Shown: piece by piece, positions 11,232-64,000 of the stretch
Layout: the number at the start of each line of letters is the position of its first letter
Numbering within the stretch: position 1 is the stretch's first letter
NCBI GenBank assembly: GCA_041674205.1
Contig: JBAYWF010000002.1
Span: 46,940-110,939 of the forward strand
Direction: 5' to 3'
DNA: 64,000 bases
From: Parcubacteria group bacterium
Lineage (GTDB): Bacteria > Patescibacteriota > Minisyncoccia > Moranbacterales > UBA2206
Translations under genes and position numbers: made by a program
Notes under the pieces: generated by a model
Seen by the model: only the letters and a program-made list of their open reading frames with translations
Told to the model about the DNA's origin: nothing
Databases searched by the model: none

Positions 11232-11903
11232 CTACAGGCTGATTTTCATTCCCCGTCCCATCGTCGAGCAAACCGTCATATTAGCCATCAGTTTCCCCTT
11301 GAAAGCGGCCGGCTTCACTTTTTCTACCGCCTCGATGAAAGCTTTAATATTTTCAATAAGTTTCGCATCATCAAACGAAAGCTTGCCCACCGCCTGGTGG
11401 ATATTGGCTGAGTCATCATTCTTGAAGGCAGCCCGTCCTTTTTTCAATGCCTCCACAGCCTCTTTGATCTTAGTGGTCACCGTCTCAGTCTTCGGGTTAG
11501 GCATCAATCCTTTCGGCCCGAGCACTTTAGCCACCTTGGCCAATTTCGGCATCATCTCAGGAGTCGCAACCAAGACATCGAAGTCGATTTTTTTAGAGAA
11601 TCCTTCGATCATTTCTTCTCCACCGACGATATCCGCTCCAGCCGCCTTGGCCTCATCCACGCTGGTTGAAGTTATGACCGCCACGCGCTTGGCCTTGCCA
11701 GTCCCGTGAGGAAGCACGACAGTTCCACGCACCTGTTGGTCGCCCTTTTTAGTGTCCACATTGGTTTTGATATGCACTTCGACCGACTCATCGAATTTGG
11801 CGATTTTATTTTCCTTCATCAACTTCACCGCCTCTTCCAAAGAATAAACTTTGTCCTTGGAGATTTTTTCCGCAGCCGCCCTGTACTTTTTCCCGTGCTT
11901 CAT
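11232..11903 (-). CDS. rplA: 50S ribosomal protein L1 (start taken at MKHGKKY; ORF extends to 11954)
   Basis: MKHGKKYRAAAEK... canonical L1 N-terminus. Confidence 0.9.
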   Translation of the reverse strand: MKHGKKYRAAAEKISKDKVYSLEEAVKLMKENKIAKFDESVEVHIKTNVDTKKGDQQVRGTVVLPHGTGKAKRVAVITSTSVDEAKAAGADIVGGEEMIEGFSKKIDFDVLVATPEMMPKLAKVAKVLGPKGLMPNPKTETVTTKIKEAVEALKKGRAAFKNDDSANIHQAVGKLSFDDAKLIENIKAFIEAVEKVKPAAFKGKLMANMTVCSTMGRGMKISL

Positions 11904-11965
11904 ATAATTTGCGTGGTTCAAGCGATGCATATTATAACCTAACGCATCTCCCACAAAATTAAAAA
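11904..11965 (-). promoter_or_regulatory. candidate L1-binding autoregulatory leader between rplK and rplA
   Basis: mRNA sense ...UUUGUGGGAGAUGCGUUAGGUUAUAAUAUGCAUCGC...; resembles the rRNA L1-stalk mimic; not folded. Confidence 0.3.
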
Positions 11966-12391
11966 TTAATTCTCTATTTTCACGCCCATCGATCTCGCCG
12001 TTCCGGCGATGATTTTCATAGCCGCTTCCACATCATTCGCATTAAGATCCGGCAATTTCTTTTCCGCGATCTCCCGCAATTTCGCTTCGCTTATTTTGCC
12101 AACTTTGTCCTTTAAAGGATTTCCAGCACCTTTCTCGATGCCGGCAGCTTTCCGCAACAAGTCGGAAGCAGGAGGGGTTTTCAAAACGAAACTGAATGTC
12201 CGATCTTCAAAAACAGTGATTTCAGCCGGGATGATATCCCCCATCTGCGCCTTAGTCGCTTCATTGAATTTGGTGCAGAACTCCTGGATATTAAGGCCGT
12301 GCTGGCCCAACGCCGGACCGACTGGAGGCGCCGGATTAGCCTTTCCAGCTCCGATTTGCAATTTGATAACGGTTTTAATTTTCTTTGCCAT
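11966..12391 (-). CDS. rplK: 50S ribosomal protein L11
   Basis: [29 protein letters not shown]. Confidence 0.95.
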
Positions 12392-12477
12392 GTGATTAGT
12401 TCTTAGTTTTTAATGATATCGCGCATTTGGAATCCCGTACTAAGAAGCCTGTACGAAACCCGACACGCGCTCGTAAA

Positions 12478-13023
12478 TTATAGTTTGCGTATCTGCAGGA
12501 AATCCAATTCGACCGGGGTTTCCCTTCCGAAAATCGAAACCAGCACCTTGACCCTGCCTTTGGCTTCGTCCACCTCGTCCACCTTCGCGTCGAAGTCTTT
12601 AAACGGACCGTCCACGACCTTGATGGAATCGCCGACTTTGACATCAATTTTATATTTCGGTTCAGCCACGCCCATCCGCTTTTTCAACATTTCGATTTCC
12701 GCCGGATCAACCGGAGTCGGCGTCGTACCCAGTCCGATGAAACCGGTCACGTTCGGAGTATTGCGGACGACATACCAGGACGCGTCCGTCACGATCATAT
12801 CCACCAGGACATATCCGGGATAAATTTTCTCTTCTACGACCGTCCTTTTGCCAGCCTTGATCTTTATTTTCTTTTCAATCGGGACCATCGCGTCGAAAAT
12901 CAGATCCTGCATATCCATCGATTCGATCCTCTGTTTCAAGTTTCGAGCGACATTATCCTCATAACCGCTGTAGGTATGGATAACATACCAGGCCCGCCCG
13001 TGATGTTGGGTTTGTTTCGCCAT
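12478..13023 (-). CDS. nusG: transcription antitermination factor NusG
   Basis: WYVIHTYSGYE N-terminus, KOW C-terminus. Confidence 0.9.
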   Translation of the reverse strand: MAKQTQHHGRAWYVIHTYSGYEDNVARNLKQRIESMDMQDLIFDAMVPIEKKIKIKAGKRTVVEEKIYPGYVLVDMIVTDASWYVVRNTPNVTGFIGLGTTPTPVDPAEIEMLKKRMGVAEPKYKIDVKVGDSIKVVDGPFKDFDAKVDEVDEAKGRVKVLVSIFGRETPVELDFLQIRKL

Positions 13024-13024
13024 A

Positions 13025-13210
13025 TTATTTTATGATAAATGTTTTTAATAAGTAACTGAATACGTAATCCAAACTTCCTAGAAAAACCGCCCCGGCGATG
13101 CTGATGCCGATAACTAAAATCGTATAATTTATAGTCTGCCGCTTATTCGGCCAGTTGACCTTCATAAGTTCCGCCCGTGCTTCCCGTAAAAATGTGGTTA
13201 TTTTATTCAT
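13025..13210 (-). CDS. secE: preprotein translocase subunit SecE
   Basis: 61 aa, single TM, FLREARAELMKVNWP. Confidence 0.85.
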   Translation of the reverse strand: MNKITTFLREARAELMKVNWPNKRQTINYTILVIGISIAGAVFLGSLDYVFSYLLKTFIIK

Positions 13211-13343
13211 TTTTTTCCTTTATTTAAGCCTTTTTTTCAAAAAGCGTTTTTAAGCTTTTTTAAAAAGCCCTCTGAGGCTTTTCTATGGATTAATATTACA
13301 TCGTTCCGAACCGATTGTCAACTGCGAAAAACCGCAAGGACTA

Positions 13344-13371
13344 TGGACAAATTTTTTCTTTACTATATAAT
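13344..13371 (+). promoter_or_regulatory. sigma70-like promoter for tRNA-Ala/tRNA-Ile pair
   Basis: TGGACA(16 nt)TATAAT, ~40 nt upstream of tRNA 5' end. Confidence 0.45.
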
Positions 13372-13411
13372 GGATTCTAGTTACCCATAAGACGGATAGA
13401 TTGAAAAATAT

Positions 13412-13485
13412 GGGCCCTTAGCTCAGTTGGCTAGAGCGCCTCGTTTGCACCGAGGAGGCCGGGAGTTCGAATCCCCCAGGGTCCA
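13412..13485 (+). tRNA. tRNA-Ala (anticodon UGC)
   Basis: cloverleaf read by eye; G3:U70 in acceptor stem; anticodon loop tTTGCAc; CCA not encoded. Confidence 0.85.
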
Positions 13486-13551
13486 CAGCATAAATTTTTA
13501 ATTTTAAAATTTTTAATTATAGAGTCGCTTTCGCGACGAATTTTTATTTAC

Positions 13552-13625
13552 GGGCTTATAGCTCAGTTGGTTAGAGCGCGTCACTGATAATGACGAGGTC
13601 TCAAGTTCGAATCTTGATAAGCCCA
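13552..13625 (+). tRNA. tRNA-Ile (anticodon GAU)
   Basis: cloverleaf read by eye; anticodon loop cTGATAa. Confidence 0.85.
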
Positions 13626-13631
13626 CATCGA

Positions 13632-19315: not shown

Positions 19316-19603
19316 TTAAACCTCGATATTCGTAATCTTCCAATTATCCCCCGCCGCTTTTTCGATTTCAAACCGCGTATTTTTCAGGATCGTATCTTTG
19401 GCGATACTTTCAATTCCGAACCGCACGTTTTCCAGATTCAACTCATCGAAATGCTCGTCGTGCGCGTGATCATGATGATGGTCGTGCGGCATGCTGGCGC
19501 CGCCGATTTCCAAGGAAACCGATTTGATATTCCCGATATTTTTTTCTCGGCTGATTCGCAAAACGGCATCGACGATTTCCTTGGCTAATAAAAAATCATG
19601 CAT
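19316..19603 (-). CDS. HypA-like Ni-metallochaperone with His-rich segment, lacking the Zn-finger CxxC pairs
   Basis: MHDFLLAKEIVD (MHE-type N-terminus), HDHHHDHAHDEH; no Cys. Confidence 0.5.
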   Translation of the reverse strand: MHDFLLAKEIVDAVLRISREKNIGNIKSVSLEIGGASMPHDHHHDHAHDEHFDELNLENVRFGIESIAKDTILKNTRFEIEKAAGDNWKITNIEV

Positions 19604-19668: not shown

Positions 19669-20043
19669 TTACGATTTCCACAATCCGTGGACATTGCAAT
19701 AAGCTCTCACTTCGATATGTTCAGCCTCCAGACAAAACTCCGCTTCCGGTTCCATACCCGGCTCCAAATGTTTCCGATAAACTCGATGCTCGGTTATGAC
19801 TTCGATCCATTCGATATAGTGTTCGCTCTCCATCGGATGCAGCACGCTGCCCACCCGCACGATCACGCCTTCACTCACCTTCTCCACGACCGGCCGGTGT
19901 TTTTCATATCTCTCTTCTTCGCTCTGTTCGGCTTGCAAAACCATCGGCTGGCCGCAACACACCAATTCACCCACTCCGTTATGCAAAACTTCGGTGATAT
20001 TGCCACAGATATCGCATTTATAGACTTGTCTTAATTCAGTCAT
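19669..20043 (-). CDS. dfx: desulfoferrodoxin (2Fe superoxide reductase)
   Basis: N-terminal desulforedoxin CDICGN...CCG; C-terminal SOR His/Cys ligands. Confidence 0.85.
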   Translation of the reverse strand: MTELRQVYKCDICGNITEVLHNGVGELVCCGQPMVLQAEQSEEERYEKHRPVVEKVSEGVIVRVGSVLHPMESEHYIEWIEVITEHRVYRKHLEPGMEPEAEFCLEAEHIEVRAYCNVHGLWKS

Positions 20044-20061: not shown

Positions 20062-21321
20062 TTAATGTACCGCGCAGGAAATGCACGGATCATAGGCCCG
20101 GATGAAGCCGCGTAACTTCTTTTGCTTGTCTTGATCCTTGAGATCGATTATCTCCTTGATGTAGTCCGCCACGTCATCTTCCAAATTAGCCAGGAACTGG
20201 GCGGTCGGAGTGATGATATTCACGTTTTTCACATAGCCTTTGCTGTCCACATCGACATGATAATAGAGCGTCCCGCGCGGAGCTTCGACCGCCGCCACGC
20301 CGACTCCCTCTTTGATTTCATATGGCCGGGTGACGACCCTCTCCAAGTCGGAGTTCAAAAGCTCTTTGATCAGCTTAGTCGATTCTTCGACGCAATGGAT
20401 GAGTTCAACCATCTGGCACAAGATATTATGGAATGGATTATAGTCCGGAAAAGTGAAATTCAAGCTTTCCAAATATTTGCCCGCTTGCGGATTGAGCTTA
20501 CTGCGGTTGATATTGATCCGGGCGATCGCTCCGACCATATAGCTTATCCCGTTATGCTCGACTTTTTTGATCACCTCGTTCTGCTTCTGCAATTCCTGGA
20601 AATCCTGTTCGAATTTTTCCACTGGGATATGCAGGCCGTACGAGGAAACTATGTCTCCGTCATAAACCGCATATCTCCCTTTCCCGCTCAAACATACATA
20701 CTCGGTTTCCCGTTGGAAATCGGGAATTTTTATTTTTTTGAAAAAATCACCCAGCGCGACAGCGTCTTGCAATGCCCGCTCGCTGTCCGCGACGATCTTC
20801 CGCAAAGCTTCCGCCTCCGGGGCTTTTTTGAAACCGCCCACCTCGTTGGTCAGCGGATGGATAACCCGTCCGCCGATGACCCGTACGATATCCATACCGA
20901 ACTCCCGCAGACGCACCGCGATTTTCGTTTCTTCGGGATAAGCGCTGACCAGCTGGATATCATTATCCATATCCAAAAAATCCGCCAATGACAGGAAAAA
21001 AAGATGGAGGGCATGCGAATGGATGATTTGCGCCAATTCCATCACCGTGCGCAGTTTTTTGGTTTCCGGCGTGACCTGGATGCCCATCGCGTTCTCCAAA
21101 GCCTTGATTGAAGTCAAGTTGTGCACCACCGGACAAATTCCACAAATGCGTTGGGCGATTATGGGCATATCCGTATAGTAGCGTCCGATCAGGACGCCCT
21201 CAATCAGACGGATGCCTTCCTGCACCTCCAGTTTGGCGCTTTTGACATCCCCATCCAACACACTGGCCATAAAACCGGCATGTCCTTCCATTTTAGCGAT
21301 ATGGTTTATTTTTATATCCAT
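20062..21321 (-). CDS. [NiFe]-hydrogenase large subunit (compact cytoplasmic group 3-like)
   Basis: N-terminal RICGICPVVH and C-terminal DPCISCAVH (ORF stops directly after His, no cleavable extension). Confidence 0.9.
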   Translation of the reverse strand: MDIKINHIAKMEGHAGFMASVLDGDVKSAKLEVQEGIRLIEGVLIGRYYTDMPIIAQRICGICPVVHNLTSIKALENAMGIQVTPETKKLRTVMELAQIIHSHALHLFFLSLADFLDMDNDIQLVSAYPEETKIAVRLREFGMDIVRVIGGRVIHPLTNEVGGFKKAPEAEALRKIVADSERALQDAVALGDFFKKIKIPDFQRETEYVCLSGKGRYAVYDGDIVSSYGLHIPVEKFEQDFQELQKQNEVIKKVEHNGISYMVGAIARININRSKLNPQAGKYLESLNFTFPDYNPFHNILCQMVELIHCVEESTKLIKELLNSDLERVVTRPYEIKEGVGVAAVEAPRGTLYYHVDVDSKGYVKNVNIITPTAQFLANLEDDVADYIKEIIDLKDQDKQKKLRGFIRAYDPCISCAVH

Positions 21322-21325: not shown

Positions 21326-22534
21326 TTATATTTTTATGTTTTTTTCCCTCGCCTCTATATCATCCCGCAAGCCGAAAATCTCAGCGATGTTTTCAAATTC
21401 ATGGTCGGTCACCATATTTTTCAAAGCCGCGCGCATCGCTTTCACATTTCCAGTCGGACGGAGTCCGCGGCATCCCTGGCAAGTCATCCGGGAGGTCGGA
21501 CAGACCGCGCCGCACCCGCCCTGGATCATCGGTCCGAAGCACGGCTTCTTGTCGAGCAACAGACAACGGTTGCCAGCCGCTTTGCATTCGACGCAAACCG
21601 GCTGGTCGGGAATGACCGGAATCCGGCCGGCTAGCAATTCCGGGATATAGCGCAGAAACTCATCGCCGGAAATCGGACAGCCTGGGAAAACAAAATCGAC
21701 TTTTACGAAATTATCGATTTCCCTGATTTCCGGATTACTGATGCCTTGGATATATTTGTAGACATGTTTGATCGTATTGGCGCCTTCCTGGTAATTTTTA
21801 ATTTCCGGTATTCCGCCCATAGCCGCGCAATTGCCCAATGCTACCAATAACTTGCTTCTTTTACGCAAAGCTTTCAAAGTTTTTACATTTTCTTCCGTCA
21901 CCGGATTGCCTTCCACCAAGACCAAATCCAAATCGCCTCCGCCATCCTCTTCATCCTCGATCAGGCGGAAATCCACCATTTCTATTTTTCCCACAAAATC
22001 CAAAAATTTCTCGCCCAAATCCAGCAAAGCGAATTGGCACCCCTCGCAAGAAGTCAAGCTGGCGATAGCCACTTTCGGTTTTTTCAATTTGGCCTCCGGT
22101 TTGCTTGGCGCCGCTTTTGCCACTTTTGCGATTTTAACGGTTTTCTTAACCGCGCTTTTGTTTTTTTCATTCACGACAGCCACAGACGCATCAACTTTCT
22201 TTTTGGCTACCCGCTTGACTGTCGGCTTTCTCTTATCAGCCTTTGCCTTGCTCTTATTCGCAGGTTTGTTTGGCAATATCTTTTTTGCATCCTTTGTTTT
22301 TTTATCAGCTACTGTTTTTTTCTTGACCGTCAACTTAGCTGGCATTTTTTTCTTCACAACCCTCGCGCCTTTCTTGGCCACAGCCGATTTATTTTTCGCT
22401 ATCCCTACGGGCAGCTTTTTCACTTTCGATTTCTTGGCGTTTTTTTTAGCCGCAACTTTGCCTCTTAACCGAGAGGTCACACTGGATAACCTGCCTAAAA
22501 ATTTAGCGATTTTTGATTTTTTATTTACTGCCAT
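21326..22534 (-). CDS. [NiFe]-hydrogenase small subunit with ~150 aa Lys/Ala-rich N-terminal extension
   Basis: SCEGCQF proximal-cluster motif and C-terminal Cys clusters; N-terminal KKxAK repeats. Confidence 0.85.
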   Translation of the reverse strand: MAVNKKSKIAKFLGRLSSVTSRLRGKVAAKKNAKKSKVKKLPVGIAKNKSAVAKKGARVVKKKMPAKLTVKKKTVADKKTKDAKKILPNKPANKSKAKADKRKPTVKRVAKKKVDASVAVVNEKNKSAVKKTVKIAKVAKAAPSKPEAKLKKPKVAIASLTSCEGCQFALLDLGEKFLDFVGKIEMVDFRLIEDEEDGGGDLDLVLVEGNPVTEENVKTLKALRKRSKLLVALGNCAAMGGIPEIKNYQEGANTIKHVYKYIQGISNPEIREIDNFVKVDFVFPGCPISGDEFLRYIPELLAGRIPVIPDQPVCVECKAAGNRCLLLDKKPCFGPMIQGGCGAVCPTSRMTCQGCRGLRPTGNVKAMRAALKNMVTDHEFENIAEIFGLRDDIEAREKNIKI

Positions 22535-22612: not shown

Positions 22613-23776
22613 ATGCGGATATTCGAATATGAAAATAAGGACACTCGACAAATCTTGGCTCTCGGTCCCGAATCGAACGGCAATTTTTCGTTTTTCTATC
22701 AGAACAAGCTTTATTTTTCCGAAGATTTCGGCGATCTATTGATTGATAAAAATTTCCATAATTACAAAACGGGCCTTTCTAAGTTCCTCAGCGCAAACAA
22801 CTTCCGTCCGGACATCATCCTCACCGACTCGCATCCGCTCTACAAAACTACCACCCTAGGCCGAAACCTGGCTAAAAAATATCCCGCCAGACTTATCCAG
22901 ATCCAGCACCACCTCGCCCACATTTTTTCCGCGATCGGCGATAAAACATTACTGACTAGAAACTATCAGCTAGAAAAGGCTTTAGGCATAACTTTGGACG
23001 GTACCGGCTATGGATCGGATGATAAAATTTGGGGAGGGGAAATTTTTAGAATTTCAAAATCCAAATTTCAAATTTTAAATCAAATCCCACAACTAAAATT
23101 ACAAATCGAAAGGATCGGACACCTGGAAAACCAAGTGATGATCGGGGGTGATTTGGCTATCAAGGAGCCTGCACGTATGTTGATCGGCATCTTATCAAAA
23201 TTCCTACCCAAGGAAAGCATCTATCCGCATATAAGAAAATATTATTCCGCCCAGGAATTTGAAGTTTTATACAACCAATCGCAACAGAAATTCAACTGCA
23301 TCGAAACATCCAGCACCGGAAGGATTTTGGACGCGGTTTCCGTGCTGCTCGGTTTTTGCGGCAATCAAAGAAATTACAAACATGAGCCGATCGAGTTATT
23401 GGAAAAAAATTCAGCAAAACCCTATTTGGATTTAAAACCCGAAATTAGCAAAGATTCCGACGGAAACCATATCCTCAGCACCACTTATTTATTTAATTAC
23501 ATACTTAAATACTTACATAAAAACAAAGATATATCTGACGGGGATAGGAACCGCTTGGCTGCCACCGCCCAACTCTACATCGCCCAAGGACTATACCGAA
23601 TAATTTCGGATGCAGATTTCGAAATCAGGGACTTCTATCTAGCCGGCGGCATCGCCAACAATAAAATAATTTCCGGATATCTGGACTCCAAGGGCGCCTA
23701 CGCCAGCCGGACGATTCCCCGCGGCGACGCCGGGCTTTCGTTCGGGCAGATCGTTTTCTATTTATCCGGCCACTAA
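22613..23776 (+). CDS. HypF-like carbamoyltransferase, C-terminal Kae1/YgjD-like domain only
   Basis: QHHLAHIF (HypF HHxAH), LDGTGYGSD, LAGGIANN; no acylphosphatase, Zn-finger or YrdC domains. Confidence 0.6.
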   Translation: MRIFEYENKDTRQILALGPESNGNFSFFYQNKLYFSEDFGDLLIDKNFHNYKTGLSKFLSANNFRPDIILTDSHPLYKTTTLGRNLAKKYPARLIQIQHHLAHIFSAIGDKTLLTRNYQLEKALGITLDGTGYGSDDKIWGGEIFRISKSKFQILNQIPQLKLQIERIGHLENQVMIGGDLAIKEPARMLIGILSKFLPKESIYPHIRKYYSAQEFEVLYNQSQQKFNCIETSSTGRILDAVSVLLGFCGNQRNYKHEPIELLEKNSAKPYLDLKPEISKDSDGNHILSTTYLFNYILKYLHKNKDISDGDRNRLAATAQLYIAQGLYRIISDADFEIRDFYLAGGIANNKIISGYLDSKGAYASRTIPRGDAGLSFGQIVFYLSGH

Positions 23777-24525: not shown

Positions 24526-25506
24526 TCAACAAATGCGAGGAATCAATTTTCCCCGCGGAACATCGATTTTTTTGATGCCGCCGAGCGAAGTTTTGAGATA
24601 GACGCCTTTTCCACGCGCGACCGAACCGATGATTTTGGCGTTTTTGTCGTATTTCTGCAAGATTTTGACGGTTTTTTGGGCTTCTTTAGCGGAAACCGTC
24701 GCCACAAAACGGCCTTCGGAAGGGAAAGAAAATTTATCGATACCCAGGAGTTCGGACAAGGCCACCGTTTCTTTGGCGAAAGGAAGCTTGCCTTCTTCTA
24801 AAACTATTTTCACTTTGGATTTTTCGGCGATTTCATTAAGCACGGCCGCCACCCCGCCCCGGGTCGGATCTTTGCATGAAGTCAGATATTTGGCCACACT
24901 TTGGATTTCCAGGGTCAAGGGCCGGCAATCGCTTTTGATTTTGGTCTTGTAATTGAAACGGCTGGCCAAAAGCGCCACCGCGTGCTCGCCCAGATTGCCG
25001 GAAGCGATGACCGCGTCCCCCGCTTGCGCCCCGCCGTTTCCGATTATCTTTTTGGCCAACCCCACTCCGGAAGTGGTGATTTCCAATTTGTCGATCTTGC
25101 CCCTTTCCGTGACCTTGGTGTCCCCCGTCACGATCGGCACGCCGGTTTCCCGGGAGACCTTGCCGATCGACCGCATAATTTTTTGCAGATCTTCTTCCGG
25201 AAAACCTTCTTCGATCACCAGGCTCAAGCCGACGCCGATCGGACGCGCGCCCATCACCGACAAATCATTGATGGTGCCGCATAGCGCGATTTTGCCGATA
25301 TCGCCGCCCGGGAAAAAAAGCGGATCCACGATGAAAGCGTCCGTCGTAAAAACCAATCGTTCCTTGCCGATCCGGAACGAAGCTCCGTCATCCTGCGTGT
25401 TTTTCCACTGGCGGCTTGCTACGAAATTCCGACGGATTTGCGCGATCAGCCGATTGGATTTTTCTCCGCCTGCTCCAGCCTCCAATTCGATCATTTCTTT
25501 TTCCAT
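24526..25506 (-). CDS. hypE: hydrogenase maturation factor HypE
   Basis: AIR-synthase-like fold motifs and C-terminal PRIC. Confidence 0.9.
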   Translation of the reverse strand: MEKEMIELEAGAGGEKSNRLIAQIRRNFVASRQWKNTQDDGASFRIGKERLVFTTDAFIVDPLFFPGGDIGKIALCGTINDLSVMGARPIGVGLSLVIEEGFPEEDLQKIMRSIGKVSRETGVPIVTGDTKVTERGKIDKLEITTSGVGLAKKIIGNGGAQAGDAVIASGNLGEHAVALLASRFNYKTKIKSDCRPLTLEIQSVAKYLTSCKDPTRGGVAAVLNEIAEKSKVKIVLEEGKLPFAKETVALSELLGIDKFSFPSEGRFVATVSAKEAQKTVKILQKYDKNAKIIGSVARGKGVYLKTSLGGIKKIDVPRGKLIPRIC

Positions 25507-25888: not shown

Positions 25889-25930
25889 AAAAAAAAGGCG
25901 TCCTGGCGAGAAAAATTCCCGCCAGGACGC
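25889..25930 (-). terminator. rho-independent terminator after PhoH-like gene
   Basis: minus strand GCGTCCTGGCGggaatttttctCGCCAGGACGCctttttttt. Confidence 0.7.
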
Positions 25931-25950: not shown

Positions 25951-27252
25951 TTAGAGAAGGCGTGTCGCTTTCTCCGCCAATCTCGAACGGTTTGCCCGCT
26001 TAAGCTTCAGATAACAGAATGCTTCGTCATCTTTGAAGCGGTCAATCAAATAGGCTAAACCACTTGAATTGGAATCGAGATATGGCGTGTCTATCTGTTC
26101 CAAATCGCCGCAAAACACGATTTTAGTGCCCTCGCCACAACGGGTAATAATCGTCTTCATCTCCCAAGGGCGCAAGTTCTGGGCTTCATCGATTATGATG
26201 AATGTGCGCTGAAGACTTCGTCCCCTGATATGGGCCACAGACTCAAGCTCAAGGATGCCCTGGGAAATAAGACTTTCCTTGGAAAAAAGGTTTTCTTTCT
26301 TGCTTTGCGCATTTTTCCTGCTAAACCCTTCCTCGATCCGTTGGTTGGAATTTTTGATAATTGCGTCCAGATTATCAAAGATCGGATTCATCCATTCGGA
26401 CAATTTTGCTTCCTTGTCTCCTGGGAAATATCCGATATCCGGACCTGATGCAATAGCCGGCCGTGCCACGACCACTTTGTCGTATAGTCTCCCACTCTTA
26501 AGCGCCTGATTCAGTCCGGACAATAGAGCTACAAAAGTCTTGCCTGTCCCGGCAACCCCTGACAAAGCTATCATTTCTATATCAGGACAGGACAGCGCGT
26601 CCAAGGCGCACTCCTGCTCCTCATCTCTTGGAGAAATCCCCCAAATATGCCTGCCTCTCCGTATGGACTTGCATGATTCCTTTTCCCAATGACGGAAAAT
26701 CTCCCCGCCTTTGACCCGGTACCGGACGGACAAGATACCATTCGGCTTCTCTTCATTTCCATCGAAGACTGAGCCGTACTTTTTGAAAAGCTCGGATTGA
26801 TCTTTGGTATAGTCATCCGTATTAAGCCCAAGACCAGACGCTTTGAGTCGGACATTAGTGTCCTTGGAGATGACAAACACTGTCTTTCCTTCCTCTGACA
26901 ATCCATACGCGAAAGACAAAATCCGGTTATCCGGCGTATCCCTTTTGAATTTGAGCGGATACTTACTATCCAATGATACGACAAGCATTCCGCCATTAGG
27001 CAGTTTTACTCCCTCCCTAATATCCCCTCCATTCAAAAATTCTGCTAGGCCGTTACTGGCCTTGCGGGCCGAAACGGCTACTGAGCCGTCAATATCATTA
27101 CTTCTTTTTTTGAGAGAATCCAGTTCCTCCAGGACTTCCTCGTAAATAACCACCGTATTGTCCCCGAATTCCCTGAACGCGTCCGGGTCATGGATTAGGA
27201 CGTTAGTGTCCAAAACGAAATACTTCGTTTTCTTTTTCTTTCTGGCTGCCAT
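25951..27252 (-). CDS. PhoH-like ATPase with N-terminal PIN domain (YlaK type); ORF extends to 27354
   Basis: PIN KYFVLDTNVLIHD; Walker A ALSGVAGTGKT. Confidence 0.8.
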   Translation of the reverse strand: MAARKKKKTKYFVLDTNVLIHDPDAFREFGDNTVVIYEEVLEELDSLKKRSNDIDGSVAVSARKASNGLAEFLNGGDIREGVKLPNGGMLVVSLDSKYPLKFKRDTPDNRILSFAYGLSEEGKTVFVISKDTNVRLKASGLGLNTDDYTKDQSELFKKYGSVFDGNEEKPNGILSVRYRVKGGEIFRHWEKESCKSIRRGRHIWGISPRDEEQECALDALSCPDIEMIALSGVAGTGKTFVALLSGLNQALKSGRLYDKVVVARPAIASGPDIGYFPGDKEAKLSEWMNPIFDNLDAIIKNSNQRIEEGFSRKNAQSKKENLFSKESLISQGILELESVAHIRGRSLQRTFIIIDEAQNLRPWEMKTIITRCGEGTKIVFCGDLEQIDTPYLDSNSSGLAYLIDRFKDDEAFCYLKLKRANRSRLAEKATRLL

Positions 27253-27357
27253 AAGCACCCCACTCGTTGAATTGATAAAAGAACAGCTTTCTGAGTGAAG
27301 CATAAAACAAGCCGGTTGCTTTTGCAAGCCACGAAAAACCCTAAAAAATGACAATTA

Positions 27358-28389
27358 CTAAGAAAACCTGTGCGCCACGTTGCAACTCCCCTCCACCGAA
27401 ACCATACAGGCGCCTTGCGGCTTGTCCGGCGTACAAACCCGACCAAAAAGCGGGCATTCTTTCGGTTCGATCAATCCTTGCAAGACCAGTCCACACCTGC
27501 AAGCGCTCGGTTTGGGCTTTGTTTCTTTTTTGATTTTTCCAATCAAATCCTTATGCACGGATTCCGCATCCTGTTTTTGATATTTTTTCCGGATCTTCAA
27601 ACCGGAATTCTTTATTTCGCCCAATCCCCGCCAACGCGCATCTGAAACTTCAAAAACCTCATCGATCAGCTTCCTGGCCTTGGGGTTGCCATCTTTTTTG
27701 ACCAAGCGCGGATAGGCATTTTCCACTTCTTTCCTGCCTTCCAGGATTTGCGCCAAAAGCCTATCGATCGCCCGCAAGACATCCTTTCCGGAAAAACCGG
27801 CTACGACCTGGGGAATTTCAAACTGTCCATAAACCCGCGTACCGATAATCGCACTGACGTGTCCCGGATCAATGAAACCGTCCACCTTGATTTTCTTATT
27901 CGCCAAAAGCGCTTCCATCGCCGGCGGAAAAATTTTATGGGCGCAATAAACAGTTATCCCGTTTTGGACTGCCCAGGCACTTGGCGGCGTCGTCGTTTCA
28001 AATCCCAGGCCGAAAAACACGATGTCGGGATATTTGTTTTTCAATTCCAAGACTTCCGCGACATCATAGACCGCGAAAACTTCGGCGCCCTTCTGCCGCG
28101 CCTGTTCCAAACTCATCAGGTTCCCAGGAACATTCAGGACATCTCCATATGCCGCCACCGGGATTCCCGCCAACGCCAAACCGGCCATCACGTCGATGTC
28201 CGTCTGGTCTGTCACACACACCGGACAGCCCGGGCCAGAAACCAGCTTCACATTTTTTGGCATCAAACTTTTGATCCCATTTTGCGCTATCGTCTGCGAA
28301 TGCGTCCCGCACAATTCCATCAAACGGACTTCCCGGCCGATTTCCGCCGCCAATTTATGGATATTCTTTACGATTTTATCGATTTCCAT
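27358..28389 (-). CDS. hypD: hydrogenase maturation factor HypD
   Basis: CGTH, GPGCPVCV signature motifs. Confidence 0.9.
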   Translation of the reverse strand: MEIDKIVKNIHKLAAEIGREVRLMELCGTHSQTIAQNGIKSLMPKNVKLVSGPGCPVCVTDQTDIDVMAGLALAGIPVAAYGDVLNVPGNLMSLEQARQKGAEVFAVYDVAEVLELKNKYPDIVFFGLGFETTTPPSAWAVQNGITVYCAHKIFPPAMEALLANKKIKVDGFIDPGHVSAIIGTRVYGQFEIPQVVAGFSGKDVLRAIDRLLAQILEGRKEVENAYPRLVKKDGNPKARKLIDEVFEVSDARWRGLGEIKNSGLKIRKKYQKQDAESVHKDLIGKIKKETKPKPSACRCGLVLQGLIEPKECPLFGRVCTPDKPQGACMVSVEGSCNVAHRFS

Positions 28390-28399: not shown

Positions 28400-28606
28400 T
28401 TATTTTTTACCTAAATACCCTTGGATATCTCTTACTAATTCCGTATCCATTTTCTCGATCGCAAAGCCGGCATGCACCATCACGAAATCTCCGATTTTCA
28501 CGTCAACCAAGGCGACATTCACGGTCTTCCCGATGCCATTGAAATCAATTTCAGCCACATCACCTTTGATTTTTAGAATTTTACCAGGGATAGCTAAACA
28601 CATATG
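28400..28606 (-). CDS. hypC: hydrogenase maturation factor HypC (start at MCLAIP; ORF extends to 28660)
   Basis: MCLAIPGKILKI canonical HypC N-terminus. Confidence 0.85.
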   Translation of the reverse strand, partial: HMCLAIPGKILKIKGDVAEIDFNGIGKTVNVALVDVKIGDFVMVHAGFAIEKMDTELVRDIQGYLGKK

Positions 28607-28722: not shown

Positions 28723-30126
28723 TTACTTCCTAGATTGCCCTCCCCCGTTGACGCAGCCGCCCGGACAAACCATACATTCGATGAGGCCTGTTTTAATCCG
28801 GCCTTTGTCCAGATCGCGCAAGATGTTTTTTATTTGCGGCACGCCATCAGCCACGATATATTCCCTGCCAGTCATTTTGGCGATCATTTCCGCCGCCCCG
28901 CCCGCCCGCTTCATATCCTTGGCGCTTTCATTTTTCACGGCAAAATCCTTGCCGAAACCAACGCTTTTTATTTCCGCCAATTTAATATTTTTTTGCCTGA
29001 TCAACCGGCCCAATTCCCTGACAGTCAAAATATGATCAAGCTTTCCGCTTCTATCTTTTTTCTTCGCCACGCACGGGGAAATGGAAATAACCACGATATC
29101 TTGCGGATTTATTTTGTGCAGTTTCGCATAATCGCCTTTAATAGCCTCCGCCATCAATTCGTCCGGATTGGCGACATCCAAAACGCTGCCTTTGAACTGC
29201 GGATAATATTTATCCACTAATAAATTGAAAGATGGGCAATGGCTGAGCATCAGATTGCCCTTGCCGCTTGTTTTGATAGCCTGCGCCATTTTTTCCAGCG
29301 CCAATCCCATCCCGAACCCCAAATCAAAAACTTTTTCAAATCCCAGCGCTTCAAGCGCCCCGACCAATTTTCCTTCCGAATTTATCTCAGACTGCTCCAA
29401 AGCGATCGATTCCAAAACGGCCGGGTCAACCAAAGCGACAGCCATTTTTTTCAAATCATCCAATTCCGCTTGGATTCCGACTAGGTCATTTTTGTCAGTC
29501 AAAGCGCCAGTCGGACAATCTTTCACGCATTGCCCGCAAAAAATACAATCCAAAGGTTTTCCATACGCAGTGCCGACCACGGCATCTCCCGCCCGATGAT
29601 TGAAGGCCAGCTCCTTGGTCGGGCAGATATTGATGCATCTCCGGCATTCTACGCATAACTCAGTCGTCCTGGAAACGCAGGGATTGCCCTCGTCCACCAC
29701 TACTCGTGAGCGGTTGTCTTTCAACAAATCGAGATTTTCCCTGTCGGTCAATTCTTCTTTTCTGGGAATAAAATGGAAGTTTTCGATTTTCTGTTCCGTC
29801 GCCAGATTCTGCAATTCGCAGCGCTGGTTTTTCTTGCAAGCCGCGCATTTGCCCGCATGGTCCGCCCACAGCAATTCCAAATTGATCCGCCGGGCTTGGG
29901 AAATTTTTTCACTTTCCGTCACGATTTCCATCCCTTCGTAAACTTTCGTATTGCAAGAAGTGATGAGGCGTCCGCCGCATTCCACCACGCAGATCCGGCA
30001 CACGCCTTCGTGCGAATTTTTCGTACCGCATAATGTCGGGATCTTTATCCCGTTGCGCAAACAAACCTGGAAAATAGTCTCTCCCGGCTTTATTTCAAAA
30101 TCCTGACCGTTGATTTTTATTTTCAT
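28723..30126 (-). CDS. hydA: [FeFe]-hydrogenase catalytic subunit HydA (2Fe-2S + His-ligated 4Fe-4S + 2x4Fe-4S + compact H-domain), with Cys-to-His in L1 motif
   Basis: L1 LSHCP (canonical TSCCP), L2 SPCVAKKKD, L3 ECMVCPGGCVNGGGQ; N-terminal ferredoxin-like Cys clusters. Confidence 0.85.
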   Translation of the reverse strand: MKIKINGQDFEIKPGETIFQVCLRNGIKIPTLCGTKNSHEGVCRICVVECGGRLITSCNTKVYEGMEIVTESEKISQARRINLELLWADHAGKCAACKKNQRCELQNLATEQKIENFHFIPRKEELTDRENLDLLKDNRSRVVVDEGNPCVSRTTELCVECRRCINICPTKELAFNHRAGDAVVGTAYGKPLDCIFCGQCVKDCPTGALTDKNDLVGIQAELDDLKKMAVALVDPAVLESIALEQSEINSEGKLVGALEALGFEKVFDLGFGMGLALEKMAQAIKTSGKGNLMLSHCPSFNLLVDKYYPQFKGSVLDVANPDELMAEAIKGDYAKLHKINPQDIVVISISPCVAKKKDRSGKLDHILTVRELGRLIRQKNIKLAEIKSVGFGKDFAVKNESAKDMKRAGGAAEMIAKMTGREYIVADGVPQIKNILRDLDKGRIKTGLIECMVCPGGCVNGGGQSRK

Positions 30127-30170: not shown

Positions 30171-31415
30171 TTATTTGGAAATCTTATAGATTTCATCGCG
30201 GAAATTTTCCAGAGCGTCCGAAAAAGCCGTCGCGGCGAATTTACCCAACGGACAGAAGGTCGTATTATTGAGCGTCCACAAGATATCCTGGATGGCCGCC
30301 ACGTCCCGTTCGGACACTTCCCCGTCTTGCAGGCGCTTAGCGATTTCCCATAAACGAAAGGTTCCTTCGCGGCATGGCACGCATTTGCCGCAGGATTCCC
30401 GGCGGAAAAAACCCGTCCAGGACAGCAGCAATTCATGGATATTGGCTGTCTTGTCCACTACCAGCACCGCTCCGGATCCCAACGGGATTTTCGCTTCACA
30501 ATCATATTCCAATTTCAATTTCAAATCTTTTTCCAGCGCCAACCGTCCAGATGACCCGCCCACCTGCGCGAACCGGAACTCCTTGCCCAACTGGATACCG
30601 CCGGCATATTTCCCGATCAAATCACCTAATTTTATGCCTAGTGGCGCTTCAAAAACATCCGGATTTTTCACCGCTCCATTCACGATGAACAATTTGGTGC
30701 CGGGAGATTTCCGGGAACCGATTTTCGCATACGCCTTTCCGCCATTTTCGATTATCCACGGGATATTGGCTATGGTTTCCGCGTTATTGATCGCCGTCGG
30801 TTTACCAAACAACCCGCATTGCGTCGGATAGGGCGGCCGCGCTTTCGGCTCGCCGCGATTGCCCTCGATGGAATTCAAAAGCGCCGTTTCTTCCCCGCAG
30901 ATATATGCCCCGGCACCCGCGAAAATTTCCATTTCCAAACCATATTTTGAACCTAGGATGCTTTCGCCGATGAAATTTTTTTCCCGCGCTTGTTCCACCG
31001 CCCGCTCTAAAATTCCGATTTCTTTTCCATAGTTGCCATTGACGTATATGAAAGCCTTCCGCGCGCCCACGATCAATGATCCAATGATGATCCCCTCCAA
31101 AAGCATATGCGGATCATTATCAACGATCGACCGATCCTTGTAGGTTCCAGGCTCCGACTCATCCAGATTGCAAATGAAATATTTTTCCTGGTTTTTTTCC
31201 AAAGCCACGCATCCAAGCTTCCGTCCAGTCGGAAAACCGGCGCCGCCCCGCCCGCACAATCCGGAAACATTGATTTCCTCCAAAGCCGATTGCGGCGTCA
31301 TCTCCCGTATGAATTTCGACAAAGCGGCATATCCGCCCGTAGCGGCATAATCTTCTATCCTGCCCGGATTTATCTTCCCCCAATTTTTGGTTATTATTTT
31401 TATTTCCTTCTTCAT
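30171..31415 (-). CDS. NuoF-like NAD(P)H-binding flavoprotein subunit (HydB/HndC type); ORF extends to 31511
   Basis: GLCGRGGAGFPTGRK, CGKCVPCREG. Confidence 0.85.
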   Translation of the reverse strand: MKKEIKIITKNWGKINPGRIEDYAATGGYAALSKFIREMTPQSALEEINVSGLCGRGGAGFPTGRKLGCVALEKNQEKYFICNLDESEPGTYKDRSIVDNDPHMLLEGIIIGSLIVGARKAFIYVNGNYGKEIGILERAVEQAREKNFIGESILGSKYGLEMEIFAGAGAYICGEETALLNSIEGNRGEPKARPPYPTQCGLFGKPTAINNAETIANIPWIIENGGKAYAKIGSRKSPGTKLFIVNGAVKNPDVFEAPLGIKLGDLIGKYAGGIQLGKEFRFAQVGGSSGRLALEKDLKLKLEYDCEAKIPLGSGAVLVVDKTANIHELLLSWTGFFRRESCGKCVPCREGTFRLWEIAKRLQDGEVSERDVAAIQDILWTLNNTTFCPLGKFAATAFSDALENFRDEIYKISK

Positions 31416-31755
31416 CCTTACATTATATCGCAACAACCATATTTTGCATATCAAATCCCATATTTTTTTCCCACTGCTTATTGAGAAAACCGCCCTTAGT
31501 CTCCGCGCCACGATTGATCAATTCGTCTTTTACTCATATTTTCCAACCATCATTCTTGCCTTGATTGAGCTCCAAACAATAGTAACCTTTACAAAAAACA
31601 ATTTTTAGTGTATAATAGATAATTGTGCCTGATTATTATCCGACCAACACCAGATTTTGTTCGATAATTGACTTTTGAATCAAAAACGCTATCATTTATA
31701 AAGAACGGTTTTGCACATTCCAACACATTCAAACAAAACATTTCAGGGGGTCAGG

Positions 31756-32301
31756 ATGAAAAAAGAAATTTCTACGGACGGGATTATCGAAGCGTTGGGC
31801 AATATAATCGCAAGCGGCGATGCCAGCGCCGCGAAAGAAATCCTAAAGGAACTGAAAAAATCCCATTCCGAAACAATTCAGGGAGTGCTGGAATTAATGG
31901 CACAAAAGGCTTTGAGGATGGGGATGTTTTTCCATCCTGGTTCCAAAGTGACCGTGTTAGATCCCGCCCACCACCCAAGCTATTCGACATTTATGTGTCC
32001 TAAGCTCGAGAGTCTGCCTTCAGACATGGAAAGGATAACGTTTCGGTGGGCTTTCACGGAGATAGAAAACGGCAGCCATTATCTGCCGGACGATACCCTT
32101 GTATCATATGGCCATTCCGACTACATCATCACGTTGATAGATGTGCTTACTGAATGTGATACTGATACGCTTAGAAAAATAACTGAAATGGCCAGACGGA
32201 TGTCCACGAAGACGGTAGTCATCGCTATGGCTATCATAAACCGCGGCTACACCGCCGAAAGTCTGGGAGTGGATGAATTTTATTCTCTCCTTGATTTATG
32301 A
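31756..32301 (+). CDS. hypothetical protein (opposite strand, between hydB and hydC)
   Basis: ORF from MKKEISTDG; no motif recognised. Confidence 0.4.
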   Translation: MKKEISTDGIIEALGNIIASGDASAAKEILKELKKSHSETIQGVLELMAQKALRMGMFFHPGSKVTVLDPAHHPSYSTFMCPKLESLPSDMERITFRWAFTEIENGSHYLPDDTLVSYGHSDYIITLIDVLTECDTDTLRKITEMARRMSTKTVVIAMAIINRGYTAESLGVDEFYSLLDL

Positions 32302-32544
32302 ACCATCCGAAAAACGGAAAAAGAGGTTGCCGATCCCGGCAGCCTCTCATTTTTTTTAAACAGACGGGGCCTTGGCACGGATCCGAAAATAACTTATACT
32401 GGGACAAGGCCTTCAGAATGGAGAGGTGAAAAATTGGGACCCACCTGGATTTTCAGGGAAAAAATTATTTTTTCCGTTAAATTTTTCAAGGGACCCACGC
32501 GCCTAGGAGCCCGACGGGCTCCCGCTCCTGCATTGAGGGCCCAA

Positions 32545-32583: not shown

Positions 32584-33024
32584 TCAGATATAATTCCGCA
32601 GGATGTCATCCACACTGCTGGGCGTCACTCTGGTAAAAACATTGCCATTCACGACCATCACCGGCCCCTGGCCGCATTGTCCAAGACAACTGATGATCTC
32701 GAGCTTAACGTTGGGATTGAAATCATCACCGGCTTTGATATGCAACTGGCTTTCGATTTCAGATATAACTTTAAAACTGCTCTTTACCGCGCAATTGGCT
32801 CCGGAACAGACCTGGATAACCAAGCCAGGCTGTTTTTTGGTTTTGACCAGATCATAGAAACTGGCGACTTCATAAACCTTGGAAAGCGGCACGGAAAAAT
32901 AATCCGCCGCTTTACGCGCCTCCTCCTCACCGACATAGCCGAAACCGGCGTCGATTTTTTTCAGCGCCGGCAACAGGTTTTTTTGTTCCGGATCGAATTC
33001 CAAAAGGATTTTTTCAACTGCCAT
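32584..33024 (-). CDS. NuoE-like thioredoxin-fold [2Fe-2S] subunit (HydC/HndA type)
   Basis: CSGANC...CLGQCGQGPVMVVN. Confidence 0.85.
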   Translation of the reverse strand: MAVEKILLEFDPEQKNLLPALKKIDAGFGYVGEEEARKAADYFSVPLSKVYEVASFYDLVKTKKQPGLVIQVCSGANCAVKSSFKVISEIESQLHIKAGDDFNPNVKLEIISCLGQCGQGPVMVVNGNVFTRVTPSSVDDILRNYI

Positions 33025-51717: not shown

Positions 51718-52020
51718 ATTTTTAGTTTATGTTCGTCTTATTTCACGAATTAAATCCGGAATAAAAACCCGGATTCGCAAATAATTACGAATTAATTTAT
51801 TATTTTATTTAACAAAATATATTTTATATCATCTCTCGATTTTTGGCAAGTTTTGCGGATTTCCACCTGTGGATAACTCAGCTGTTTTATCCCGGGACGC
51901 CCGCAAACGCACATTTCTCCAACCACTTGCATCGTTATCAAATATTATCAAGTAATTTGCACCTTGTCAAGCTTTTTTGGAATATTTTTCCATCCGATCC
52001 TCCGCCTTGCGACAATCAAG

Positions 52021-52422
52021 TCAGGACTTCATCCCGGAAAAATCCGCGGTTCCGAATTTTGCCAGCGGATCATCCTCCAGAACGCCCTCGGCGGATCCAT
52101 CTGCCGATTCCTGAACCGCCACGACCGCGGATATTCCATCCTCTTCAGCCATCCGCCTGCCTAGCTCGAAGCTAGCGATTACCTCGCAAGCTTTGGCCGT
52201 ATCCAGCCCGAAGGTTTTTTCCAACTCCGCGGCATCCGCTCCAGCCAAGGAAAATTTCGGATATTCACGCAAGATGTTTTTCGCCAATTCGACTACATCC
52301 ATGCCTTTCGTCCCCGTACGCAAAATAATCGCCAACAATTCGGACTTCGTCAACTTATCCGCGCCGTAATGCAACATTTTTTCTTTCGGCCATTCTATTT
52401 TCGCGCTTCCTTTTGTTTCCAT
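52021..52422 (-). CDS. RadC-like N-terminal (UPF0758, HhH) domain protein lacking the JAB/MPN domain
   Basis: LTKSELLAIILRTGTKGMDVVELAKNIL...LGRR typical RadC N-domain; only 133 aa. Confidence 0.6.
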   Translation of the reverse strand: METKGSAKIEWPKEKMLHYGADKLTKSELLAIILRTGTKGMDVVELAKNILREYPKFSLAGADAAELEKTFGLDTAKACEVIASFELGRRMAEEDGISAVVAVQESADGSAEGVLEDDPLAKFGTADFSGMKS

Positions 52423-52431
52423 ATTTCTATT

Positions 52432-62714: not shown

Positions 62715-62724
62715 TTTTTTATTT

Positions 62725-62754
62725 TAATTACTGAATTAATTCATGAATTATGGT
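62725..62754. promoter_or_regulatory. motif C copy (immediately upstream of NERD gene)
   Basis: TTAATTACTGAATTAATTCATGAATTATGG; overlapping palindromes TGAATTAATTCA and ATTCATGAAT. Confidence 0.55.
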
Positions 62755-62816
62755 CGGAAATGATTAATTAATGATTGCTCATTATTTTGCCTTAAAAGGT
62801 GCCTGACCCCATATAT

Positions 62817-63455: not shown

Positions 63456-63462
63456 TTTTTTA

Positions 63463-63505
63463 GGTAAGTAATTAATTACTGAATTAATTCATGAATTAAA
63501 ATTAT
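63463..63505. promoter_or_regulatory. motif B tail + motif C copy (upstream of acidic 212-aa gene)
   Basis: AGGTAAGTAATTAATTACTGAATTAATTCATGAATTAAAATTA. Confidence 0.55.
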
Positions 63506-63796: not shown

Positions 63797-63797
63797 A

Positions 63798-63983: not shown

Positions 63984-64000
63984 GTCACTTTCTGAATCAG

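Follow-up and report, generated by a model that had tools for sequence, protein, structure and literature searches.

The 64-kb window analysed here, taken from contig JBAYWF010000002.1 of a Parcubacteria group bacterium (Moranbacteria), contains on its minus strand (28723..30126) a gene for a HydA-derived subunit of 467 residues, which we term HydA′. The gene is a descendant of an iron-only hydrogenase. The H2-making site of its product has most likely been lost, with NADH electrons now wired to a [NiFe] hydrogenase encoded downstream, and the locus most likely presents a tiny-genome bacterium caught midway between two kinds of hydrogenase. In the reading that we favour, at a probability of about 65%, HydA′ is a HydA-derived Fe-S conduit subunit of a NuoE/NuoF-driven, non-bifurcating, NADH-linked [NiFe] hydrogenase and not a working [FeFe] hydrogenase. 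This reading draws on residue states in the sequence, on synteny and gene co-occurrence, and on phylogeny and selective constraint.

The HydA′ open reading frame (ORF), which begins with ATG, was surveyed with Pfam and HMMER and for cluster ligands. It contains Fer2_4, NADH-G_4Fe-4S_3, two Fer4 and one Fe_hyd_lg_C domain (E=1.2e-43). The N-terminal part is NuoG/HoxU-like, with sites for one [2Fe-2S], one His-ligated [4Fe-4S] and two [4Fe-4S] clusters. The ligands of all four (C33/C43/C46/C58; H90/C94/C97/C103; C158/C161/C164/C168; C194/C197/C200/C204) are present and invariant in the family, in agreement with an earlier note on this DNA that had called these clusters complete. A phmmer search of all PDB chains returned NADH-linked HydA proteins as the best matches (8a6t at 1.5e-70, 7q4v and 7p5h), followed by the clostridial enzyme CpI, and Foldseek placed HydA 8a6t, 7q4w, 7p5h and CpI at the top for the HydA′ model. 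By these comparisons HydA′ is a HydA homologue nearest to NADH-linked HydABC-type enzymes, as had been proposed. Curated NCBIfam models for [FeFe] enzymes match it below their cutoffs: the best, for "NADH-dependent [FeFe] hydrogenase, group A6" (FeFe_hydrog_A6), scores 309 against a cutoff of 765, followed by Hydr_FeFe_Clost (220/900), TIGR02512 (168/406) and TIGR04105 (135/450). The HoxU model matches the N-terminus with 116 bits (cutoff 333).

Three motifs, all on the minus strand, define the shortened H-domain. L1, LSHCP, lies at 29233..29247 (residues 294-298), with His296 at the position of CpI C299 and C297 at that of CpI C300. L2, ISPCVAKKKD, occupies 29053..29082 (residues 349-358); its C352 corresponds to CpI C355, and, numbering pocket and pathway positions here and below as in CpI, M353 has become Ser and K358 is kept. 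L3, ECMVCPGGCVNGGGQ, at 28735..28779 (residues 450-464), supplies C454 and C458, the equivalents of CpI C499 and C503, and is followed only by SRK and the stop codon. L2, L3 and the end three residues later are as first described. The four Cys that ligate the cubane, [4Fe-4S]H, in CpI, including the bridging C300, are therefore present as C297, C352, C454 and C458, as the earlier note also held, and they are all that is retained of cluster ligation in the H-domain. The C-terminal small-subunit-like domain is missing.

The register of L1 is secure. In separate HMMER alignments to 8a6t, 7q4v, 7p5h and CpI, the query MLSHCPSF was placed on FTSCCPSW, so that S-H-C-P falls on S-C-C-P; the reading of L1 with His for its first Cys holds, and the mis-registration that had been named as a possible flaw did not occur. 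The His codon is CAT (29241..29239), not CAC as previously given. We rejected a sequencing error at this codon, since a change from Cys to His requires two base changes and the closest relatives of HydA′ also have His at the relay position. Spacing was described correctly for one interval and wrongly for the other: L2 and L3 are separated by 102 residues against 144 in CpI (42 shorter, close to the estimated 40), whereas the Cys-to-Cys distance from L1 to L2 is 55 residues in both proteins, with no HMMER gap between the motifs in place of the claimed shortening by about 10.

We scanned species-representative genomes for relatives and obtained 80 loci, all from Moranbacteria or other Patescibacteria metagenome-assembled genomes. 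In the canonical class (32 loci) the ORFs are 548-618 residues long and carry TSCCPSW, MPCxxK and E[VI]MACPxGC. Downstream of hydA, over distances of up to 10 kb, none of these 32 loci shows a Hyp or a [NiFe] gene. In the mid-size class, to which HydA′ belongs and in which L1 is degenerate, hypC lies directly downstream in 27 of 27 loci (22 distinct sequences); of the 20 that extend over 5 kb or more of flank, 14 show the [NiFe] large subunit gene. The short class comprises 24 loci, most with the same Hyp and [NiFe] genes; its proteins (338-365 residues) have lost L1 and L3, have Lys or Arg in place of the L2 Cys, and keep a Cys-less H-domain remnant of about 130 residues in an unchanged operon slot. 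NuoE-NuoF genes stand upstream in all classes, and genes for triose-phosphate isomerase (TIM) and fructose-bisphosphate aldolase (FBA) in most; the canonical HydA P0115 occupies the identical TIM-FBA-NuoE-NuoF slot. Protein databases gave a similar picture, with about 90 homologues of 430-510 residues sharing the HydA′ architecture and a further group of about 344 residues lacking a detectable H-domain. The neighbourhoods of distant members, the form of about 344 residues included, are nearly collinear, in the order TIM-FBA-NuoE-NuoF-HydA′-HypC-...-[NiFe]S-[NiFe]L-Dfx-HypA-GAPDH, where Dfx is desulfoferrodoxin and GAPDH glyceraldehyde-3-phosphate dehydrogenase. When the H-domain alone was searched exhaustively against 1.84 billion representatives, no more than about 5 clusters matched at E<=1e-30.

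A tree computed by neighbour joining, without support values, from the 215 N-terminal residues that all forms share puts mid-size and short forms in one clade with no canonical member; the short forms are a single clade nested within the mid-size forms, and the canonical sequences fall outside. The simplest history would be a single transition from a canonical NADH-linked HydABC enzyme to a degenerate H-domain with a [NiFe] module, followed by a single loss of the cubane ligands.

Selective constraint was compared between 100 sequences of the degenerate clade and 32 canonical sequences. Position 299 is H in 49, F in 25, Y in 15, N in 9 and S in 2 of the 100 clade members, an entropy of 1.84 against an H-domain background of 1.83. 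Phe is incapable of proton relay. The other four proton-pathway residues (E279, E282, S319 and R286) are all replaced in HydA′ relative to CpI and canonical relatives, and in the clade their mean entropy of 2.43 lies above background (P=0.90). The pocket is altered as well: HydA′ carries A230D, Q325D, M353S and F417M, and among positions A230, S/A232, Q325, M353, F417 and M497 only M497 and A232 keep canonical-like states. Of 90 database homologues, all have Asp at A230, 87 have Ser at M353 and 87 have Asp or Glu at Q325, and F417 is aliphatic in about 90% of the degenerate-type homologues. Over 11 positions of the [2Fe] pocket, mean entropy is 0.07 in canonical and 0.97 in degenerate sequences, where the H-domain backgrounds are 0.86 and 1.83, respectively; F417, M497, S232 and P354 vary at or near background in the degenerate clade. 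The earlier note missed these pathway and pocket replacements, and also the HypC/D/E/F and [NiFe] hydrogenase genes downstream.

The cubane ligands behave differently. In a clade that has diverged to about 46% identity, three of the Cys positions are occupied by Cys in 100 of 100 sequences and the fourth in 97 of 97 non-gap sequences; they are invariant in canonical sequences too. Estimated against the two closest relatives, the ratio of nonsynonymous to synonymous substitution rates is 0.06 over the N-terminal part; in the H-domain it is 0.11-0.18. Together with an AlphaFold2 model in which the predicted local distance difference test score of the H-domain is 90-97, the latter ratio indicates that the domain is maintained and is not drifting.

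On the input side, the gene adjoining HydA′ encodes a NuoF/HoxF-like flavoprotein (30171..31415, minus strand; 414 residues from Met33 of the longest ORF, which extends to 31511) with a flavin mononucleotide (FMN)/NADH site and one [4Fe-4S] cluster. Pfam finds Complex1_51K, SLBB and NADH_4Fe-4S domains only. The protein aligns with residues ~100-520 only of HydB/HoxF chains of about 600 residues, and homologues in relatives are 404-421 residues long. The extra N-terminal [2Fe-2S] and C-terminal 2x[4Fe-4S] domains of bifurcating HydB (the B1-B5 set) are thus absent. HydB-type subunits without extra clusters are non-bifurcating (PMC7311640, PMC11406978, PMC9304861), so that we expect the same of this enzyme and rejected an electron-bifurcating (Bfu) complex on the architecture of the NuoF-like subunit. 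A NuoE/HoxE/HydC-like, thioredoxin-like [2Fe-2S] subunit of 146 residues (32584..33024, minus strand; Pfam and NCBIfam) is encoded about 1.1 kb beyond the NuoF-like gene, with an opposite-strand ORF in between; of the adjacency reported earlier for both partners, only that of the NuoF-like gene is literal.

On the output side, the gene order downstream of HydA′ is hypC, hypD, PIN-PhoH, vanZ, hypE, hypF, [NiFe] small subunit, [NiFe] large subunit, dfx, hypA and GAPDH, with TIM and FBA upstream of nuoE. There is no terminator-like site between HydA′ and hypC. The large subunit (20062..21321, minus strand; 419 residues) carries RICGICPVVH, ends in DPCISCAVH and aligns over its full length with Pyrococcus group 3b SHI alpha (3.5e-66), ahead of 7t2r_D (5.7e-48) and 5xf9_D (7.6e-38). 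The small subunit (21326..22534, minus strand) is also of group-3b type: its residues 152-358 match the three-cluster Pyrococcus SHI delta (5.9e-35). The Ni-Fe Cys motifs of the pair are intact and their best PDB matches are SHI alpha and SHI delta. HyhB and HyhG genes, for the 3b beta and gamma subunits, were found neither in the window nor in the annotated relative loci (L001, L003-L005 and L007), which leaves NuoEF-HydA′ as the only candidate electron-input module.

We propose the following mechanism. The NuoE-like and NuoF-like subunits and HydA′ would form an NADH-oxidising (diaphorase) module, in which electrons would pass from FMN to the NuoF [4Fe-4S] cluster and into the [2Fe-2S]/[4Fe-4S] chain of the N-terminal part of HydA′. 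From this chain they would reach the three-cluster small subunit and then the Ni-Fe site of the group-3b-type hydrogenase, matured by the interleaved HypA/C/D/E/F. The H-domain most likely still binds a [4Fe-4S] cluster, because its four cubane Cys are kept, and this cluster would be the equivalent of cluster A5 of Acetomicrobium NiFe-HydA. The di-iron subcluster would no longer be held or used, the relay Cys having given way to any fitting bulky residue (His in HydA′), with the proton pathway gone, the pocket remodelled and the C-terminal wrap deleted. Glycolytic NADH could in this way be re-oxidised to H2 without electron bifurcation, a role that fits the flanking TIM, FBA and GAPDH genes. 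Production of H2 from NADH would be expected only at low H2 pressure, which would suit a fermentative bacterium of the candidate phyla radiation (CPR) dependent on other cells.

Several observations weigh against this reading. The pocket is not in plain decay: D230, P324, S353, D/E325 and K/R358 are conserved above the H-domain background (P=0.0015), and some site-specific function of the pocket persists. The bridging Cys is invariant in the degenerate clade. Neither loss of the proton pathway nor shortening of the H-domain implies inactivity. The group D enzyme TamHydS, with C299A, M353S, M497L and an altered pathway, binds a genuine H-cluster (PMC11803613), and we therefore rejected pathway loss as a sufficient sign of inactivity; P0125, a minimal canonical TSCCP enzyme of 297 residues, has the same short L2-L3 spacing, and the argument from length was dropped. 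In archaeal group F hybrids, a [NiFe] module and a domain with an H-cluster are predicted to belong to one complex (PMC11216029). Genes for HydE/F/G were sought at the level of loci, not genome-wide, and none was found in the window, in five relative loci whose flanks were annotated with Pfam, or in an ORF scan of seven canonical loci. The canonical Moranbacteria hydA genes, which serve as a positive control, also lack HydE/F/G within 10 kb, so that local context cannot settle whether maturases are present; most archaeal genomes with [FeFe] hydrogenases lack HydEFG too (PMC11216029), and the absence is not decisive. The co-occurrence with hypC and [NiFe] genes is a single ancestral event retained in a deep clade and not a set of independent replicates, and a Fisher test of 27/27 against 0/32 would be misleading for that reason. 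Finally, a physical complex of NuoEF, HydA′ and the [NiFe] subunits is suggested by gene order only; the [2Fe] subcluster is presumably absent from HydA′, judging from its residues, and the direction of electron flow through the subunit is likewise the one that we presume.

These points bear most directly on the alternative that survives best, which we nevertheless regard as unlikely: a bacterial two-site hybrid, in which the remodelled pocket (Asp230, Ser353, Asp/Glu325 and Lys358) holds a di-iron site and one NuoEF-driven complex contains both an [FeFe] and a [NiFe] centre. The four invariant H-cluster Cys, the conservation of several pocket positions and a confidently modelled H-domain under purifying selection are all consistent with it. 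It also has precedents, since archaeal hybrids are active after artificial maturation (PMC11216029) and the H-cluster is bound by group D enzymes that lack C299, M353 and the canonical pathway (PMC11803613). Against it, His, Phe, Tyr and Asn interchange at position 299, the variability at F417, M497, S232 and P354 is close or equal to background, and a conserved pathway is missing. Furthermore, D230, S353, E325 and K358 are still conserved in the nested short clade, which has no Cys ligands at all, and the residues D230, S353, D/E325 and K/R358 are for this reason unlikely to be cofactor ligands. HydEFG genes are absent from the window and all flanks examined, and two acidic side chains would have been introduced around what would be the site of an anionic, CN-ligated cluster. 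Decidedly unlikely, in our estimate, are two more adventurous versions. HydA′ could be the first bacterial counterpart of the archaeal hybrids, with a functional but unconventional di-iron (or other) site in a pocket marked by Asp (invariant) at 230, Ser at 353, Asp or Glu at 325 and Lys or Arg at 358, and matured without nearby HydEFG, or the cubane could serve as a second electron entry, for example from ferredoxin, in a confurcation unlike that of Bfu enzymes.

Very doubtful is the view, implied by the earlier note, that HydA′ is an autonomous NADH-linked HydABC-type [FeFe] hydrogenase whose His acts as a relay that tunes pKa or catalytic bias, with the [NiFe] enzyme a separate entity. The HydA fold, the cluster ligands and the NuoE/NuoF-like partners are all in place, the description plausibly applies to the canonical relatives found in the same syntenic slot, and group A6 provides the best-scoring NCBIfam model. 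All scores, however, lie far under the curated cutoffs, and a His found in 49% of the clade (with 25% F, 15% Y and 9% N), at background entropy and amid an otherwise unconstrained pathway, does not look like a functional relay. In addition, no dedicated diaphorase subunits are encoded near the [NiFe] pair, and the hypC/[NiFe] link is perfect in degenerate loci and nonexistent in canonical ones. What stands of the earlier interpretation is the HydA homology and the NuoE/NuoF partners; its "low-activity variant" is apt only in the broad sense that the protein is non-canonical, and the tuning of a relay falls away.

A purely structural H-domain, which would serve as a docking platform for HyhSL or NuoEF without any metal cluster, is more improbable still. 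The short clade presumably functions with its Cys-less remnant of ~130 residues, yet four Cys invariant in 100 sequences at ~46% identity are hard to explain without cluster binding. Least probable of all is the H2-sensing or regulatory domain of group C/D type, modulating an attached enzyme, that the earlier note had also raised: the loss of C299, M353S and the loss of the pathway do recall group D (PMC11803613) and a Geobacteraceae sigma-54 regulator (P0266) carries ASHCP, but Pfam finds no PAS, kinase, phosphatase or extra C-terminal cluster domain in HydA′, which stops 3 residues past L3 and has a NuoG-type electron wire as its N-terminus, and the nested clade dropped the Cys ligands and kept the operon.

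As a proposed conduit subunit, HydA′ has one of its closest known parallels in the NiFe-HydABCSL (NiFe-Bfu) enzyme of Acetomicrobium mobile (PDB 7t2r; PMC8880783, PMC9304861), where a HydABC-type module is coupled to a group-3 [NiFe] S/L pair. In that enzyme the H-cluster is replaced by a plain [4Fe-4S] cluster at a dead-end branch, and HoxU is regarded as a truncated HydA (PMC8880783); HydA′, to judge from its residues, would lack a catalytic H-cluster too. The differences are clear. Chain 7t2r_A matches only residues 5-213 of the query, whereas HydA′ keeps a clear Fe_hyd_lg_C domain; the cluster set for bifurcation is complete in A. mobile HydB and incomplete in the NuoF-like subunit here; the A. 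mobile small subunit has one cluster, where the small subunit here aligns with three-cluster SHI delta; and the large subunit here is nearer to 3b SHI alpha than to 7t2r_D. Hox enzymes (HoxEFUYH, group 3d) also feed a [NiFe] dimer from a diaphorase resembling NuoE, NuoF and the N-terminal part of NuoG, probably without bifurcation, and the relatives of ~344 residues are effectively HoxU plus a stub. HoxU itself has no H-domain, however, and the [NiFe] subunits here are 3b-like and not 3d, with 5xf9_D the more distant match. The S/L type matches that of group 3b SHI, an alpha-beta-gamma-delta enzyme whose beta and gamma genes have no counterpart in the window or the annotated relative loci.

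The archaeal group F/G hybrids (PMC11216029) share the genetic coupling of an H-domain to a group-3 [NiFe] enzyme and NuoE/F/G-like subunits. Group F proteins join the H-domain to the [NiFe] small subunit (HyhS-HydA) and leave the NuoG-like HydD separate, whereas HydA′ combines H-domain and NuoG-like part in one chain and the gene for the small subunit lies ~6 kb away; the archaeal HydB has a GltA domain, and one of the enzymes made H2 after artificial maturation. That study (Greening et al. 2024) makes no mention of Patescibacteria. The probable ancestor type is represented by the non-bifurcating Hyd1ABC of S. wolfei and HydAB of S. aciditrophicus (group A6; PMC7311640), to which the canonical Moranbacteria HydA plausibly belongs; the latter sits in the same syntenic slot as HydA′, with the same short NuoF and NuoE. 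Such non-bifurcating enzymes keep C299, the pathway, M353/M497 and the C-terminal small-subunit-like domain and have no link to Hyp or [NiFe] genes. Sensory enzymes of groups C and D (TmHydS and TamHydS; PMC11803613) resemble HydA′ in having a residue other than Cys at 299, Ser for M353 and a replacement of most of the canonical pathway. They differ in that the residue at 299 is small (Ala), an alternative pathway is conserved, PAS or C-terminal cluster domains are present and binding of an H-cluster has been demonstrated. HydDB includes a Moranbacteria group 3b [NiFe] hydrogenase (PMC5037454), and the text of PMC10811913 makes no mention of a HydA-like or NuoEF module. Our literature search found no description of the HydA′ clade or of an SHCP-type L1, and nothing on this variant for CPR with HydEFG or for Parcubacteria with FeFe, NiFe or NuoF.

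A further parallel is eukaryotic Nar1/NARFL (CIAO3), a HydA-like protein with the H-domain fold and its Fe-S Cys that is not known to hold a di-iron subcluster or to have hydrogenase activity; it belongs to another lineage, with a different domain organisation and a role in cytosolic Fe-S assembly.

We regard the HydA′ locus as a variant of the NiFe-HydABCSL/Hox-type enzyme; as an evolutionary intermediate that links the [FeFe] and [NiFe] kinds of NADH-linked hydrogenase, it is unusually clear. One phylum and one genomic slot hold a three-step series: canonical NADH-linked HydABC, a probably cubane-only H-domain with a [NiFe] module, and a Cys-less HoxU-like stub. The series makes the proposed relationship between FeFe-HydABC, NiFe-HydABCSL and the Hox diaphorase directly traceable, and supplies a bacterial example for the "intertwined history" of both hydrogenase classes. 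Proteins of the HydA′ type carry the database names "Hydrogenase, Fe-only" or "[Fe-Fe] hydrogenase ... domain-containing protein", under which a metabolic reconstruction of Patescibacteria would tally them with the [FeFe] hydrogenases; in genomes of the degenerate clade, the [NiFe] enzyme is more likely to be the H2-producing catalyst. The clade is also a natural data set on folding of the H-domain and retention of the cubane, presumably without the di-iron site, and a relay position that tolerates His, Phe, Tyr and Asn is useful for enzyme design.

The remaining genes of the [NiFe] locus, all on the minus strand apart from hypF, show several peculiarities. HypC (28400..28603) has 67 residues from an MCLAIPG start, within a longest ORF that extends to 28660; HypD (27358..28389) is a strong Pfam match (E=2.4e-121), and HypE (24526..25506) was assigned from AIRS/AIRS_C domains and synteny. 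HypF (22613..23776, plus strand; 387 residues) consists of the C-terminal Kae1-like half only, matching positions 387-739 of the 741 in TIGR00143, without the acylphosphatase, zinc-finger and YrdC-like parts; HypF of relatives is similarly reduced (371-500 residues) and is without exception encoded on the opposite strand. In its longest ORF, the [NiFe] small subunit begins with a Lys-rich stretch of ~145 residues that has no counterpart in SHI delta; the true start of the subunit is probably internal, because relatives have 252-292 residues (376 in L007). The large subunit stops at the His after its C-terminal CxxC, so that there is no C-terminal extension to cleave, and the [NiFe] locus contains no maturation endopeptidase gene. 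Beside it lies a gene for desulfoferrodoxin (superoxide reductase; 19669..20043) in a position kept in most relatives, which suggests oxygen protection of the hydrogenase. The HypA-like protein (19316..19603; 95 residues) is matched by HypA models over its first 38 residues only, and a His-rich stretch, HDHHHDHAHDEH, replaces the usual zinc-binding Cys motifs.

Insertions appear to interrupt the locus in places. The opposite-strand ORF between nuoE and nuoF (31711..32301, plus strand; 196 residues, perhaps 181 from Met16) has no Pfam or NCBIfam match and is flanked by a promoter-like site at 31588..31616 (11/12 match) and a strong terminator-like hairpin at 32322..32347. It looks like a lineage-specific insertion that split the operon, because the nuoE-nuoF gap is only ~25-135 nucleotides in the more distant relatives L003, L005 and L007. 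Between hypD and vanZ-hypE lie a PIN-PhoH gene (25951..27354, minus strand) and a terminator-like hairpin with a 15-bp stem (25930..25898); this insertion is common to L011 and absent from L001 and L008. In the canonical locus L006, the region directly downstream of hydA (11864..13566) contains a tRNA-like stretch and an ORF of 532 residues that looks like a large serine recombinase, and is followed by methyltransferase and helicase genes. It has the appearance of an integrated mobile element standing where other genomes carry hypC and [NiFe] genes.

Degenerate L1 motifs also occur outside the clade: ASHCP in the 764-residue P0266, whose HydA-like sensor domain is part of the sigma-54 transcriptional regulator mentioned above, AVCP in P0148, an unnamed protein of 493 residues, and AFCP in a Bacillota protein (P0205). 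The top match of the exhaustive H-domain search was P0121, a Cyanophora paradoxa gene model of 4122 residues with 14 matched stretches; here either HydA-like domains are repeated in tandem or separate genes were merged into one model.

Elsewhere in the window, tRNA-Ala(TGC) at 13412..13486 and tRNA-Ile(GAT) at 13552..13626, both on the plus strand, form a pair that stands alone, with no rRNA detected anywhere in the 64 kb; such a pair is usually found within the 16S-23S spacer. Near the right end the composition shifts, from a GC fraction of 0.525 at 52000..54000 to 0.355 at 62000..64000. The right-end region holds a RhuM/Fic protein, a NERD nuclease (ORFs 55610..56623 and 61920..62714) and several ORFs without a family match, and may be a mobile or defence island.

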